Assembly (NCBI GenBank): GCA_048938855.1
Contig: JBHLLT010000001.1
Location: 64,001-128,000, forward strand
Direction: 5' to 3'
DNA from: Promethearchaeota archaeon
Lineage (GTDB): Archaea; Asgardarchaeota; Lokiarchaeia; Sigyniarchaeales; SOKP01
DNA: 64,000 nt
Shown here: one piece after another, positions 45,872-52,504 of the stretch
How the letters are laid out: each line of letters begins with the position of its first letter
How positions within the stretch are numbered: the first letter of the stretch is position 1
Notes under the pieces: generated by a model
Seen by the model: only the letters and a program-made list of their open reading frames with translations
Told to the model about the DNA's origin: nothing
The model's database searches: none
Program-made: the position numbers and the translations under genes

Positions 45872-47011
45872 TTAGACACCAATTCCAATAGTATTGCCAA
45901 TACCAGCAATAATAATTTTTGAGCCTTTAATTGTCCGTTTTCGAATAGCTATCTTTATTTTTTCAACGAATTTTGGGACAGATTGAGTAATTGGTCGTTT
46001 CATGGTTGTAATAGCATCTTCCAACGATTGTTTACAAATTAGAGCATCAATCGGAATTGATTTACCTGTTGATGATTCTTCAATGTAATGCTTTTCAATA
46101 CCAATTCCTCCAATCGCAGCACCAACTCCAACTGCCATGGAACCCGTTTTATCTCCTGTAAGTTTTAAACCAGCATCAATCATAATTATTCTTGATATCG
46201 AATCACCGTGTTGATCGATTAATTCCTTGATGGCTTTGCCTGGTTTTCCAACGGTACCACCTGGACCTTTAGCTCGAACGATATATATTGTTCTTTCTTC
46301 AAATTCTAATTCTTGTACGATTGTATCTCTTTCAACTTCATTAGCAACAATATCATTATTTACAACTGACCTTACAAAACTTGCAGCAACTAGCGGTCCA
46401 AGTCCATCTCCTATAGGACTTCCTTCTGAGAAAGCCTTAGCTGCATGATAATAGGCTTTAGCCATGGTCATAATTAATCCTAACTGGTATGAAATTTGAA
46501 GTAGCAGTATCATTGATTTAGATTTCTTTCCTAAAATTAGGTAGTGTCGGATTAATCTATAAATAAAGTCAATTGCCATTGTTGCCTCCAATAAATTCTC
46601 TAAATTAGCTCTTTGTACAATATCAGCATTTGGGGCTAAAAATTCAACTTCTTCCTTGAACCTATTGTCTCTTACATCAACAATATGATCAAATTTGGGA
46701 ACAATTCCATATGGATCGAGAGATACAGGGGAAATGGTTACGAAAGTAAGAAAATCTTCAAGCTGAAGCATTAAATCCTTTTGAGTCTTTTTTTTATTTG
46801 CGAATTCTTTAAAGTTTGTAATTAATATTTCTTTACATTCATCATTCCATTTTTTTAATTTCTCTAGGGCAGCTTGGATTTGTCTAGATGCTATCCATGC
46901 CTGTAGTTTTTGCCCATAAAACATAGAAATAAAAATAAGCAAAAACCATAATAAAGATATTATGAGAGAAATCGGATCTGTGCCTGTGGTTCCTTGATAA
47001 ATATTATTCAT
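45872..47011 (-). CDS. DUF1512-family archaeal membrane-anchored protein
   Basis: N-terminal TM; PIGDGLGPLVA, KGPGGTVG, MIDAGLKL, GIGNTIGIG. Confidence 0.75.
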   Translation of the reverse strand: MNNIYQGTTGTDPISLIISLLWFLLIFISMFYGQKLQAWIASRQIQAALEKLKKWNDECKEILITNFKEFANKKKTQKDLMLQLEDFLTFVTISPVSLDPYGIVPKFDHIVDVRDNRFKEEVEFLAPNADIVQRANLENLLEATMAIDFIYRLIRHYLILGKKSKSMILLLQISYQLGLIMTMAKAYYHAAKAFSEGSPIGDGLGPLVAASFVRSVVNNDIVANEVERDTIVQELEFEERTIYIVRAKGPGGTVGKPGKAIKELIDQHGDSISRIIMIDAGLKLTGDKTGSMAVGVGAAIGGIGIEKHYIEESSTGKSIPIDALICKQSLEDAITTMKRPITQSVPKFVEKIKIAIRKRTIKGSKIIIAGIGNTIGIGV

Positions 47012-47131: not shown

Positions 47132-47572
47132 ATGATTGAAGACGAAGATGATGAGGATGTTTTAAAAAAAGGTATAACACTTAAAAGCATTTTAAAAAAC
47201 CTTGCGTTTATTTTACTTATTGTAGTTGGTATCTTATTAATATATGTAGATTTTGGATTTGACCAATTAACAAGATGGTCAATTGGTTTCATGCTAATTT
47301 GTTTTGGAGCAACATTAATACAATTCCAGAAAAGTCCTGCTGAACCTGTTAGACAGACTTTAACAATTTTAATCTGTAAATTATGTGGACTTACTAAAGT
47401 CAGAAATTATCAAAAAGGAGACTTTGTCTTTAAAAAATTGGATAGATGTGATAAATGTAATAACTCAATGGAAATAAAACAAATATATTCCGTGAGATTA
47501 AAAAGTCACACTGAGAAATCTAAAACACAAGAAGATAAGAAAGAAGATTTAAAAGTTAAAAAAGAAAATTAA
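47132..47572 (+). CDS. 2-TM membrane protein with zinc ribbon
   Basis: Two TM helices; CKLC...GDFVFK...CDKC. Confidence 0.7.
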   Translation: MIEDEDDEDVLKKGITLKSILKNLAFILLIVVGILLIYVDFGFDQLTRWSIGFMLICFGATLIQFQKSPAEPVRQTLTILICKLCGLTKVRNYQKGDFVFKKLDRCDKCNNSMEIKQIYSVRLKSHTEKSKTQEDKKEDLKVKKEN

Positions 47573-47607
47573 TACTATCATCTTCTAATTTGTGTGGTGT
47601 TTTTTAG

Positions 47608-48054
47608 ATTCTAAAGAAAGTTGGGTTAGGTGGAACTTTCGATCATCTACATGAAGGTCATAAATTCCTTTTAAGAACTGCCTTATCTGTAGCCGAATTT
47701 GTAGAAATCGGATTAACCTCCCAAGATTTACTGAAAAATAAACAATTTACATCAAAATTAGAAGATTATAAAACAAGAAAAGAAAATTTGTTAATGTATA
47801 TTGAATCTATTGCTGATTTAAAACGTATAAAAATAGTTGAAATACGAAACTGGACAGATATGGATAAATATGCTCAAGATCCTGAATATGAAGGACTAGT
47901 TGTCAGTTTTGAAACATATGAAAATGCCCAAAAATTAAATGAAAATAGGGAAAAAGAAGGATTAAATCCTCTCGTTTTAATTGTTATTCCACTTCTCAAA
48001 GATAAAGATAATATAAAAATCAGTTCTACTTCAATAAGAGAAAAATTAATATAA
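47608..48054 (+). CDS. coaD: Archaeal/eukaryotic-type phosphopantetheine adenylyltransferase (148 aa from ATT; the track shows only the last 88 aa)
   Basis: The in-frame 5' extension reads ILKKVGLGGTFDHLHEGH (HxGH); VVSFET and KISSTSIR follow. A TAG lies immediately before ATT 47608. Confidence 0.9.
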   Translation: MLKKVGLGGTFDHLHEGHKFLLRTALSVAEFVEIGLTSQDLLKNKQFTSKLEDYKTRKENLLMYIESIADLKRIKIVEIRNWTDMDKYAQDPEYEGLVVSFETYENAQKLNENREKEGLNPLVLIVIPLLKDKDNIKISSTSIREKLI

Positions 48055-48076: not shown

Positions 48077-51000
48077 CTAGAAGTCTTTAGTAATTTTATC
48101 AATTCTTTTTTTTTTTTCATCTATAAAGATTCTTGATTTGTTTCTGTCGTGGAGAATTGAAGCAGCAAAAATAGATATCGCAATTCCGATTGAAGCTACC
48201 AGGATTATTGAGAGGGTTAATGGTACTGAAATTTCAGAAATTCGGTCAGGGGTGTTATATAAATTTACTACATTGGTCTGTTCTGATTCAATATTGCCTA
48301 CTAAATCAAATGCTTGATATGTGATAAGATAATCTCCCGGTGAAAACCCCGATAATCTGAAAGCTCCTGAATAAATTATCCAACTAGAGCTATTAATCCT
48401 GTATCTTATTATAGATACGCCAGATTCAAAATGATCGTCTGCTATAAGGTAAAAAACTGTTAAGTCAGTCACTACATTTAAACCAGAATAGGGCGTAAAT
48501 AAGAGAGTAGTGTTAGGAGGACTAAGATCTTTATTTATTGTTATTTTAGCATAACTTTCTTGACCAAATGTATCATTAGCATAAAATTTTATTGTAACGG
48601 GTCCATGTCCGTAATTTTCCCACTCCAATTGATTAATAGTTCCCGATAAACCTTCAAAAGTGATTTTAGTCATTCCATTATCTAATGTGTACCATTTTGC
48701 ATCTAAATATAAACTTGTGATTGAAACTTCAAAATATGGAGCATTATATCCATAGAAATCCCCAGCTTGAGGAAAATTTATTGAAATTTGAGGAGGAGCT
48801 ATCGGTATGTTTAATGTAAAATATCTTATGTCCGATGAATAGAAATATCCTAAGGAATTATTCCCAAACAATTGAATTGAATGAAGTCCATTATCTAACA
48901 TGGGTAATGTGATATTTCCAATAATAGTGATATTATTATTACCATCTAAAGAATATCCTATCCATTTAAAATTAGGTGTTTTTTCAAAACTTAGTAATAA
49001 ACCTTCATTAAAATTATCTCCAATGGCATAATATGGGTCCCATGAAAAGCCAATAGCATCTATATAAAAATTGTAATCGACTCCTCCTGCCCCACCCGAA
49101 TAAAATTCAATACCACCAATGTTGTTGACTGGATTCCAAAAATTACCATTTGTAATTTTTTGTACACCATTAACTGAAACATTTATTTTATCAGTATCAC
49201 AATTAAATTCTAACTTAATATGATACCAGGTATTAGGGGTATAGTCTTGAATATTTTGACTCGCACCATCACAATATTGTAGCCATCCATTATAATTAAA
49301 AGCAATATAGGTAGCATACGCACCAGAAACATCATTTTCTCGAAAAGCAACATAACTCTGCCTTAAAGCAGATATTCTCATCCACCATTCAACTTCTCCA
49401 TGAATTTGTGTTGAACAAAGATCTCTTCTCATATAAGCTATATTGGTATTATCATTATCATAGAATTCAGCCACTTTATGATGCCCATCTAAACCAGAGA
49501 TAATTTGAAATGTGGTTCCAGACTCTTCTTCAATCTTCCATCCATTTGGATAAGAACCATCTCTAGTATCTTCAAATCCATATGTAGCTGGATAATATCC
49601 ACTCATTGGTTCTGTATAGGTAATATTTTCAGGAGTAATTATATTGAGATAATAGGAAGTATTAATTGTAAAATATCTAATGTCAGACTCGTAAAAAGTT
49701 CCTATAGAATTATTGCTAAAAACTTGGATGGTGTGTATTCCATCTAAACTAGGATATGGAAATGTAGTATTTCCTAGAATCGTTTTATTGGTTTGTCCAT
49801 CTAAAGAATATCCTATCCATTCTGGAGTAAAGTTAGTTTCAAGACTAAGTAATAAACCTTCATTCTCATTATCTCCAATCTCATAATTTGGATCCCATGA
49901 GTATCCAACAGCATCTACATAATGATGATATCCTGAGACAAAATTGCCACTATTAAAATCGATTCTATTGAAATTATCCCCTGTAACAACTGCTTCAAAA
50001 GTAAAGTCAGTCCCACTCTGTTTTAAATTACCCTGATCATCAAAAATAGAAAAACTATAGGTATCTGTACTCATATTGATGTCTACTGAAACCAAATACC
50101 ATGTATCTGCTGAATAGGTAAAACCATAATACCAATTACCCTGATCATGATAACGCAACATTGAATTATCATATAATGAAAGGGTTATCAATCTAATAGA
50201 ATTTTCAAATACCATAAAATGAGTTATTTTACTTGTACTTGTAACTCTCCACCAAAATTCAATAGTTCCGCTTGTTTGATTATCAATATCTTGCGAGAAA
50301 CCACAACTTATCCCTGAACCTGCTGAAGTTTTATAAATGTCTACTATTTTATTATGACCTCCTATATTTGCCTCAATGGAGACTTGGCCTCCGATATCAA
50401 CAACTGTCCATCCTTGTGGATTTTCGCCATTACCTGAATCTTCAAACCCATACGTAGCTGGATAATAACCACTCATTGGTTCTGTATAGGTAATATTTTC
50501 AGGAGTAATTATATTGAGATAATAGGAACTATTAATTGTAAAGTATCTAATATCAGATTCATACATAGTTCCAATTGAATCATTACCAAAAACTTGTATG
50601 GTGTGTATCCCATTTAAACTAGGATATGGAAATGTCGTATTTCCTAGAATCGTTTTATTTAATTGGTTATCTAATGAATATCCTATCCATTCTGGAGTAA
50701 AGCTAGTATCAAAACTAAGTAATAAGCCTTCATTCACATTATCTCCAATCTCATAATTTGGATCCCATGAATATCCGATAGCATCAATATACATATTATA
50801 ACTAGTATGAGCTGTAGAAGTACTCATATAGAAATTATCACTATAAAATTCATTACTTTGGAATGGCATCTCAGCTGATTCTACCCCATCTATCCAACAC
50901 TTCCATGTATACTGATCTAGTCCCAAATAATTTCCAGTAGTACATTCAAAAGCAATTCTAATATGGTACCATGTATTATCTAATGGTGCAGGCATGTTAC

Positions 51001-52504
51001 CTCCAGTAGCCTTCTGAATAATCAAATCTGTTTGAGTTGCTGTTTGATATCTCCATTGATCATACCGACTTCCCATACTCACTAGATTATTTTTTTCTTG
51101 TCTAATTGCAAGTCCGGTTCTATCATATGCATCATCAACTAAAAACCAGTACTCAATAGTTCCATTATCAACATTCATACTAAAATTATTATAGCAGCTT
51201 GCCCTATAAGAATATCCATTATCATCAAACCATAATACTTTATTATGGCCACTCCTACTCGAAACCACCGAAATAGGATAATTATCTGCGTTTATAAGGT
51301 AGGAAGGAAGAGTTCCATCTGGATCACTTTCAAATCCATATGTCGCGGGATAATATCCACTCATTGGTTCTGTATAGGTAATATTTTCAGGAGTAATTAT
51401 ATTGAGATAATATGAAGTATTAATTGTAAAATATCTAATATCAGACTTGTACATAGTTCCCATAGTATTATTACCAAAAACTTGGATGGTGTGTATCCCA
51501 TCTAAACTAGGATATGGGAATGTAGTATTTCCTAGAATCGTTTTATTTAATTGGTTATCAAAAGAATATCCCTGCCAATCAGGTATAAAAGAAGTATCAT
51601 AACTAAATAATAATCCTTCATCAAGGTTATCTCCGACATTATAGTGAGGATCCCAAGAGTATCCAATTGCATCAATATACATGTTATAACTGGTATGAGC
51701 TGTTGAGGTGCTCATATAAAAATTATCAGCAAAAGTCGCATTATTTTGGAATGGCATCTCTGCCGATTCTATTCCATCAATCCAACATTTCCATGCATAT
51801 TGATCTAATCCGGAATATTTTCCAGTAGTACATTCAAAATCAATTCTAATATGGTGCCATGTATTATCCAAAGGACTTGGCATATCACCTCCAGTTGCCC
51901 TTTGCATATTGAGATCTGTCTGAGTACTTGTGTGATATTTCCATTTATCATACCTACTTGAAAATTGAACTAAAGCAGTATCCCCTTGCCTTGTAATCAA
52001 TCCTGTTCGGTCATAAGCATCATCAATTAAAAACCATAATTCGATAGTACCATTATCAACATTTAGACTAAAGTTATTATAACAGCTTGCTCTATATGAA
52101 TATCCATTATCGTCAAACCATAATACTTTATTATGGCCACTCCTACTCGAAACCACTGAAATAGGAAAATCACCTAAGTTTACAATGTAGGAAGGAAGAG
52201 TTCCATCTGTATCACTTTCAAATCCATATGTTGCAGGATAATATCCACTCATCGGTTCTGTGTAGGTTATATTTTCTGGAGTATTAATATTAATCTCTGG
52301 TCCGCTTATTCTTAGTTCATGTAAATTAATAGGATCTTCTTTTAAATTTTCTAAAATAAAACTATAATTAACCGAACTAAAGAGCATAAAAGCACTAAAA
52401 ACAGAAATTAATAACATCAATAAAACAAATCTATTTGATTTCACATTTACCATTCTATTATATCCTATTTTTTTGTCTAATTTAATAATTATAATATTGA
52501 GCAT
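48077..52504 (-). CDS. Large surface protein with four tandem ~290-aa modules (lectin/LamG-like insert in an Ig-like scaffold) and a C-terminal TM anchor
   Basis: N-terminal signal; TPENITYTEPMSGYYPATYGFE occurs four times; WYHIRI.F, YIDAIGYSWD; C-terminal TM then a basic tail. Confidence 0.85.
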   Translation of the reverse strand: MLNIIIIKLDKKIGYNRMVNVKSNRFVLLMLLISVFSAFMLFSSVNYSFILENLKEDPINLHELRISGPEININTPENITYTEPMSGYYPATYGFESDTDGTLPSYIVNLGDFPISVVSSRSGHNKVLWFDDNGYSYRASCYNNFSLNVDNGTIELWFLIDDAYDRTGLITRQGDTALVQFSSRYDKWKYHTSTQTDLNMQRATGGDMPSPLDNTWHHIRIDFECTTGKYSGLDQYAWKCWIDGIESAEMPFQNNATFADNFYMSTSTAHTSYNMYIDAIGYSWDPHYNVGDNLDEGLLFSYDTSFIPDWQGYSFDNQLNKTILGNTTFPYPSLDGIHTIQVFGNNTMGTMYKSDIRYFTINTSYYLNIITPENITYTEPMSGYYPATYGFESDPDGTLPSYLINADNYPISVVSSRSGHNKVLWFDDNGYSYRASCYNNFSMNVDNGTIEYWFLVDDAYDRTGLAIRQEKNNLVSMGSRYDQWRYQTATQTDLIIQKATGGNMPAPLDNTWYHIRIAFECTTGNYLGLDQYTWKCWIDGVESAEMPFQSNEFYSDNFYMSTSTAHTSYNMYIDAIGYSWDPNYEIGDNVNEGLLLSFDTSFTPEWIGYSLDNQLNKTILGNTTFPYPSLNGIHTIQVFGNDSIGTMYESDIRYFTINSSYYLNIITPENITYTEPMSGYYPATYGFEDSGNGENPQGWTVVDIGGQVSIEANIGGHNKIVDIYKTSAGSGISCGFSQDIDNQTSGTIEFWWRVTSTSKITHFMVFENSIRLITLSLYDNSMLRYHDQGNWYYGFTYSADTWYLVSVDINMSTDTYSFSIFDDQGNLKQSGTDFTFEAVVTGDNFNRIDFNSGNFVSGYHHYVDAVGYSWDPNYEIGDNENEGLLLSLETNFTPEWIGYSLDGQTNKTILGNTTFPYPSLDGIHTIQVFSNNSIGTFYESDIRYFTINTSYYLNIITPENITYTEPMSGYYPATYGFEDTRDGSYPNGWKIEEESGTTFQIISGLDGHHKVAEFYDNDNTNIAYMRRDLCSTQIHGEVEWWMRISALRQSYVAFRENDVSGAYATYIAFNYNGWLQYCDGASQNIQDYTPNTWYHIKLEFNCDTDKINVSVNGVQKITNGNFWNPVNNIGGIEFYSGGAGGVDYNFYIDAIGFSWDPYYAIGDNFNEGLLLSFEKTPNFKWIGYSLDGNNNITIIGNITLPMLDNGLHSIQLFGNNSLGYFYSSDIRYFTLNIPIAPPQISINFPQAGDFYGYNAPYFEVSITSLYLDAKWYTLDNGMTKITFEGLSGTINQLEWENYGHGPVTIKFYANDTFGQESYAKITINKDLSPPNTTLLFTPYSGLNVVTDLTVFYLIADDHFESGVSIIRYRINSSSWIIYSGAFRLSGFSPGDYLITYQAFDLVGNIESEQTNVVNLYNTPDRISEISVPLTLSIILVASIGIAISIFAASILHDRNKSRIFIDEKKKRIDKITKDF
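48810..52300 (-). repeat. Four intragenic tandem modules spaced 888, 888 and 870 bp
   Basis: The anchor actcat(t/c)ggttctgt occurs at 52247, 51359, 50471 and 49601. A 56-nt block is identical at 49599, 50469 and 51357. Confidence 0.92.

Follow-up and report, generated by a model that had tools for sequence, protein, structure and literature searches.

ATT, ATC and ATA are all start codons in NCBI translation table 11. In bacteria, translation from AUU or AUA behind a Shine-Dalgarno (SD) sequence has been described for infC, which encodes IF3, and pcnB in Escherichia coli, and for infC (AUA), cvfC1 (AUU), ccpN (AUA) and citZ (AUA) in Staphylococcus aureus. The S. aureus AUU and AUA starts lie behind extended SDs and gave about 10-30% of the AUG yield in reporters (PMC13009471), and the AUU of infC makes IF3 synthesis respond to the level of IF3 (PMC4705826). 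Among the papers searched, reviews of archaeal translation list only AUG, GUG and UUG as starts (PMC7531240), and in ribosome profiling of H. volcanii about 30% of the putative alternative sites were near-cognate and were set aside by the authors (PMC7261190). Archaeal ATT starts receive only passing mention in the searchable literature, such as the "rare ATT start codon" that a 2026 paper proposes for the Asgard (Kariarchaeaceae) tubulin gene atubA (PMC13394414).

Here, we report that the gene for phosphopantetheine adenylyltransferase (PPAT), coaD, in the genome of an uncultured member of the Lokiarchaeia is very probably translated from an AUU codon at position 47608 of the window, by which we mean the whole stretch of 64,000 nucleotides that was analysed (genome G000, contig C34, positions 64001-128000; all coordinates below are those of the window unless a contig is named). 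The assembly comprises 3.95 Mb in 93 contigs and is 97% complete, with 30% G+C. Like the bacterial genes, coaD carries a near-cognate AUH codon that is suitably spaced from a strong SD before it, and the arrangement is conserved among relatives. As for infC and pcnB, no canonical start would keep the N-terminus, the SD stands at a functional spacing and some orthologs have a canonical start. Unlike in the bacterial set, the machinery is archaeal (aIF1, aIF1A, aIF2 and Met-tRNAi), and whereas bacteria start a handful of genes in this way, ATT equals ATG among the GGTG-led genes of this genome. Textbook archaeal initiation, with its SD-led mRNAs and aIF1/aIF2 machinery, supplies the setting in which the coaD AUU would have to function (PMC7531240, PMC6237735). 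The reasoning for atubA was similar to ours, in that ATT was inferred from a first beta strand that was otherwise missing and from a ribosome-binding site that was then plausibly spaced (PMC13394414); it differs in concerning a single gene from another Asgard class, mentioned in a Methods section without comparative or genome-wide analysis. The features of the locus are as follows.

45872-47011, minus strand: DUF1512 gene, neighbour of coaD.
47132-47572, plus strand: upstream open reading frame (ORF) of 146 aa; two membrane helices are predicted, the C-terminal part is rich in Cys and the tail in Lys.
47596-47599, plus strand: SD core GGTG, complementary to the 16S rRNA 3' end, 8 nt before the ATT.
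47600-47607, plus strand: T-rich spacer of 8 nt, its last three being an in-frame stop, TAG (47605-07), which is no conserved element.
47608-47610, plus strand: ATT, putative coaD initiation codon, from frame reading and ortholog alignment.
47608-48054, plus strand: coaD coding sequence for an archaeal PPAT, 148 codons plus TAA (48052-54), from profile and structure matches.
47629-47661, plus strand: GGTFDHLHEGH at codons 8-18, the nucleotide-binding motif; all canonical starts lie downstream of it.
47788-47790, plus strand: TTG, first in-frame canonical start (codon 61), which opens an ORF of 88 aa.

On the plus strand the frame reads TTG TGT GGT GTT TTT TAG (47605-07) ATT (47608-10) CTA AAG AAA GTT GGG TTA GGT GGA ACT TTC GAT CAT CTA CAT GAA GGT CAT, and a second TAA follows the stop TAA at 48052-54. 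We read no in-frame ATG, GTG or TTG after the TAG until codon 61, and the GGTFDHLHEGH motif precedes the first canonical start, TTG 47788, by 43 codons. A canonical ORF search at coaD accordingly gives the 88-aa ORF only. TTG 47788 was rejected as the coaD start, since it would delete the active-site motif and the profile match begins at residue 3. A start at codon 5 or 7, which is GTG, TTG or ATG in some orthologs and underlies public models of 141-143 aa, was also rejected: these codons are not conserved as starts, and beginning there would remove the first beta strand, which aligns to residues 2-6 of the solved PPAT structure 3DO8.

Because the genome's own 16S rRNA ends in GGATCACCTCCT, GGTG is a true complement of the anti-SD. 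The coaD core is only 4 nt long in this genome and its spacer measures 8 nt, versus 7 in most ATT and ATA genes here. This spacing is functional to judge from the ATG genes, which use GGTG spacers of 5-11 nt: genome-wide, GGTG stands before the first ATGs of long ORFs in 8-23 cases per position at 5-11 nt versus about one at 12-26 nt. The original prediction had placed the catalytic motif upstream of the first canonical start, a TAG directly before ATT CTA AAG AAA and an SD-like GGTG about 8 nt upstream, and all three hold on reading the frame and the 16S rRNA end. As a separate observation, GGTG-type SDs precede only about 4% of the first-ATG long ORFs in the whole genome, so that most genes would be SD-less or leaderless.

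How could such a codon be used? We propose that the 16S rRNA 3' end pairs with GGTG at 47596-99 and would thereby set the ATT, 8 nt downstream, in the P site; there, initiator Met-tRNA would read AUU as a near-cognate codon with two of its three positions paired. The predicted protein would begin Met-Leu-Lys-Lys-Val. Anchoring by the SD may offset the weak codon, with a yield that is probably below that from AUG. Many genes of the lineage would be started in the same manner, as ATT, ATA and ATC behind GGTG(A) appear to be about as common as ATG among SD-led genes. The gene for aIF1, the start-codon proofreader, seems itself to start with ATT, which fits a relaxed or self-tuned stringency and is no proof of it. 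Searches of the assembly with aragorn and regular expressions found no initiator tRNA; aragorn returned 24 tRNAs, among them one intron-bearing elongator Met tRNA. The initiator may therefore be unusual.

A ribosome might also reach the ATT at 47608 mainly by termination at the TAA of the upstream ORF (47570-72) and reinitiation within an operon, in place of de novo binding by the small subunit, a route that would leave the coaD start codon unchanged and that we regard as unlikely. The upstream ORF, whose Pfam matches are all sub-threshold, shares its strand with coaD and terminates 35 nt ahead of the ATT; in congeners, the same 3' end (LKVKKEN-stop) stands in synteny before coaD. The two may be co-transcribed, and reinitiation tolerates weak start codons. 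However, 35 nt is long for coupling, and what is conserved is the distance from SD to ATT rather than that to the upstream stop: the spacer varies in sequence between species while its length is kept at 6-8 nt. Many other ATT and ATA genes of this genome, moreover, follow AT-rich intergenic DNA.

Alternatively, translation might begin at the in-frame TTG 47590 and pass the TAG at 47605 by read-through, through pyrrolysine or suppression, to give MCGVF-X-ILKK... A strain of 97% identity has CAG in place of the TAG, and its stored protein model starts LCGVFQILKK (P0002). Against this very improbable reading, most species have an in-frame stop 0-5 codons upstream of the ATT and no canonical start in the interval, as in TAG GGT GTT TTT CAG ATT. 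Nor is the TTG conserved or preceded by an SD, and the GGTG would fall inside coding sequence. A search of the genome for PylS gave a best match of 23.8 bits versus a cut-off of 178, and thus no PylS. The codon that precedes the ATT is TAG, TAA, CAG, CGT, CTA, CAA, CCT, TAT or another depending on the species, and the strain with CAG shows no more than that this position varies freely.

Initiation at AUU 47608 is thus the reading that we follow across relatives. The aligned first codon is ATT in all 28 congeneric genomes with coaD, this one included; orthologs came from 18 of the 24 genomes in a first draw and from nine more in a second. ATT is invariant in these 28 genomes while the flanking bases vary, the second codon being CTA, CTT, CTC or TTA. 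Two other invariant Ile columns, taken as controls, are mixed (ATT/ATA/ATC 8/8/3 and 7/11/1), 57% of the Ile codons elsewhere in the coaD genes are ATT, and within the genus codon 1 is never ATA. Pairwise dS against the window's gene amounts to 0.8-1.75. Since silent sites have turned over to this extent and other Ile columns are mixed while codon 1 is unchanged, codon 1 appears to be constrained as a codon, beyond its amino acid alone.

Across the family, 62 orthologs from 12 genera have ATT (41), ATA (5) or ATG (12) at the aligned codon, and in the remaining four (three from genus g17, one from g16) an ATG lies further upstream, which is also the case in the order's other families. ATT, ATA and ATG interchange immediately ahead of the conserved L-(K/N)-x-(V/I)-G-(L/M)-GGTFD, and the position therefore behaves as an initiation codon. 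The original prediction had suggested aligning the Loki orthologs at this codon and had named an assembly error hiding an ATG as one outcome that would overturn it. Such an error is scarcely credible, as ATT stands in 28 independent congeneric assemblies and in 13 genomes of other genera, with ATA in five more.

The protein that starts at the ATT is an ordinary archaeal PPAT by sequence, and its activity, the formation of dephospho-CoA from 4'-phosphopantetheine and ATP, is predicted. It scores 131.6 bits against NCBIfam NF001985 (PPAT; cut-off 104), with residues 3-148 on profile positions 5-146 of 157, and PF01467 covers residues 8-146 at 54.1 bits versus a cut-off of 21. Both signature motifs, GGTFDHLHEGH at codons 8-18 and ISSTSIRE near the C-terminus, align to PDB 3DO8 (E 2e-15), and the first of them is invariant or nearly so in 73 coaD orthologs. 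Residue 2 of 3DO8 (KVALGGTFEPLHEGHK) aligns to residue 4 of the coaD product, which would thus extend two residues beyond the crystallised enzyme and would need no further upstream sequence. The gene shares with archaeal PPATs (CoaD; COG1019 type; PDB 3DO8) the length of 148 aa, the GGTF(D/E)xLHEGH and ISST motifs and a score above the NCBIfam cut-off; it differs in its start codon only. That 148 aa from the ATT is a normal length, as proposed at the outset, agrees with the solved 148-aa enzyme.

Could the locus instead be a pseudogene, or yield only an 88-aa fragment from TTG 47788, with PPAT supplied by another gene? Canonical ORF finders do give 88 aa only, and the original prediction had named decay together with a second, intact coaD as a further way to be wrong. 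This reading is hardly tenable, as the median dN/dS of 0.12 over 165 pairs places coaD under purifying selection, its N-terminal motif is kept, and a family search of the whole 97%-complete genome finds coaD as the sole locus above the PPAT cut-off. The next-best match reaches 49 bits; this generic cytidylyltransferase is encoded directly upstream of a gene that resembles riboflavin kinase, which makes it probably RibL-like. The third is a Nudix-NMNAT fusion. The central proposal, that a CoA enzyme initiates at AUU, is accordingly supported by the lack of a usable canonical start, the SD, the product length, the single PPAT locus and purifying selection. Least plausible, to the point of being negligible, is a start at the GTG within GGTG (47597-99) with a subsequent programmed shift to the frame of coaD. 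Although a T6 run follows the GTG, the GTG frame (GTG TTT TTT AGA TTC TAA) stops after five codons, slippage in that run leads into the TAG, beyond which there is no slippery site, and the spacer keeps its length and not its sequence between species.

With initiation at AUU as the preferred reading, what might compensate for the weak codon in other species? Of the 46 orthologs with ATT or ATA, 41 have an SD of 4 nt or more at a distance of 3-12 nt upstream, versus two of the 12 with ATG (Fisher p 3e-6, which is overstated as relatives are not independent). GGTG, AGGTG or AGGAGGT occupies the same place in those 41 of 46; the other five have GGGG(G)T in four cases and GTGTGGT in one (L103). On the PPAT tree, at least five changes between ATG and ATH (ATT, ATA or ATC) are counted over all branches and one contrast on well-supported branches, so the link between SD and start codon in coaD orthologs may be called suggestive. 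When the tree is rooted on other families, the deepest branches of this family (g19 and g20) have ATG without SD, a weakly supported hint that ATH with an SD may be the derived state.

Is coaD an exception within its genome? We scanned the whole genome for codons of any kind that stand 5-11 nt after a GGTG and begin a frame of 100 codons or more, with an in-frame stop no more than 12 codons upstream and no canonical start between, a design that covers SD-led genes only; non-canonical codons additionally had to have no canonical start in the next 10 codons. At a spacer of 7 nt the counts are ATT 23, ATG 22, TTG 15, ATA 11, GTG 3 and ATC 3, with at most two for any other codon. Coding sequence uses AAA, AAT, GAA and TTA as often as ATT, yet each occurs at most twice at this spacer. 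ATT, ATA and ATC make up 37 of the 56 non-canonical codons versus an expected share of 0.107 (binomial p 7e-23), and at control spacers of 14-20 nt the signal is gone. The scan is biased in that GGTGA with a spacer of 7 makes TGA itself the in-frame upstream stop; this bias does not explain the ATH excess, because it is equal for every codon. Spacers of 6-9 nt yield 49 distinct genes, of which 33 start with ATT, 12 with ATA and four with ATC.

These 49 include genes for an XPD helicase, an aldehyde:ferredoxin oxidoreductase (AOR), rubrerythrin, an IscU-like protein, small GTPases and a short-chain dehydrogenase (SDR). Examples outside the window lie in the same genome (G000) at C34:465984-467951 (L041), C60:5518-7407 (L045) and C27:1645-2421 (L052). 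Among 20 candidates tested, a Pfam domain begins before the first canonical start in nine, given below; the other 11 either gave no domain or have their first one downstream of that start.

XPD-type helicase, ATA: domain from residue 12; first canonical start at codon 64.
Rubrerythrin with N-terminal rubredoxin domain, ATA: domain at residues 6-34; first canonical start at codon 63.
BcrAD/BadFG ATPase, ATA: domain from residue 19; first canonical start at codon 30.
AOR, ATA: domain from residue 6; first canonical start at codon 30.
Response regulator, ATA: domain from residue 4; first canonical start at codon 22.
Arf-like GTPase, ATT: domain from residue 123; first canonical start at codon 169.
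SDR, ATT: domain from residue 6; first canonical start at codon 71.
Alpha/beta hydrolase, ATT: domain from residue 20; first canonical start at codon 65.
Ras-like GTPase, ATT: domain from residue 27; first canonical start at codon 53.

Among orthologs of XPD, 17 congeners carry ATA at the aligned codon, one carries ATT and one ATG; in the species with ATG, GCTG replaces the GGTG of the others. Because of the excess in the scan, the Pfam cases and this ortholog pattern, the use of ATH starts appears to be both genome-wide and genus-wide. In this light coaD is one of about 50 such genes rather than a singular regulatory oddity, and its conservation is typical; all that sets it apart is the 8-nt spacer and the lack of ATA within the genus. 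Within the window, a search with looser SD motifs returned no ATT-, ATA- or ATC-start candidate besides coaD.

The list of such genes may extend to the initiation machinery. The single SUI1/aIF1 gene of the genome lies outside the window (G000, contig C31:6353-6667; locus L133:1426-1740). Its frame runs through two in-frame stops, TGA TAA, then GAG AGT ATT, then KDDDICPICSFPKELCICD (KDDDICPICSF...), with no canonical start until near the C-terminus. In 22 of 22 congeners this ATT is conserved, as is a leader of 20 nt (AAAGGTTGTGATAAGAGAGY), and in the sister families sampled the likely starts, by frame reading, are ATA, GTG or TTG and never ATG. Formally this parallels bacterial infC, and by analogy a weak start on its own mRNA may permit an infC-like feedback on aIF1. 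The parallel is probably confined to aIF1 since, unlike infC, coaD is tied by nothing to start-codon fidelity. In Sulfolobus (S. solfataricus), aIF1 rejects AUU complexes in vitro (PMC4705826), a point against initiation at the coaD AUU. Tentatively, and as a reading that we consider somewhat less probable than its opposite, this Lokiarchaeia family may follow a relaxed start rule in which SD-led AUU, AUA and AUC are regular starts at about the frequency of AUG, essential genes included and coaD among these, with stringency set through aIF1 feedback from its own weak start.

The consequences for annotation are practical. Callers limited to ATG, GTG and TTG cut or misplace the N-terminus of PPAT, and the same holds for about 50 other genes per genome. 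Public coaD models of 141-143 aa or 152-155 aa stand beside correct ones of 147-148 aa, some starting at codon 5 or 7 and others upstream. The original prediction that standard callers would truncate the gene applies to the 141-143-aa models and fails for the window's own stored protein (P0001) and for NCBI ortholog records, which begin MLKKVGLGG; the ATT start is thus already called in NCBI MAG records for coaD orthologs. For Asgard genomes, misplaced N-termini impair the prediction of structures, the design of expression constructs and the calling of pathways. More broadly, AUU has been kept genus-wide on a single-copy gene of the CoA pathway while synonymous changes came near saturation, which points to near-cognate initiation as a stable, selected state. 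The archaeal lineage concerned carries eukaryote-like initiation factors, and the coaD AUU together with the weak start of aIF1 offers a testable handle on start-codon stringency in relatives of eukaryotes.

Finally, some observations concern the wider locus. Genome G012 has a second, partial coaD copy (C54:675-929) in which residues 62-148 are matched at 49% identity; with its two TAA stops, it is a decayed 3' fragment. In congeners G005, G006, G013, G014 and G016 neither coaD nor the neighbouring DUF1512 gene was found by a search whose first-look filter is lossy, which makes this weak evidence, and the same lossy search did not find coaD in G007. The congeners without a coaD match are 86-100% complete, one of them being a single 3.3-Mb contig, and both XPD and aIF1 were recovered from them; a subclade may lack the locus, or the search may have failed at its first look. 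Downstream of coaD, an ORF of 1475 aa on the minus strand (48077-52504) converges on the gene, with 22 nt between both stop codons. It contains internal repeats of about 300 aa, in which blocks of ITYTEPMSGYYPATYGFE and AHTSYNMYIDAIGYSWDP recur. It has a membrane anchor at its C-terminus and is probably a repetitive surface protein.
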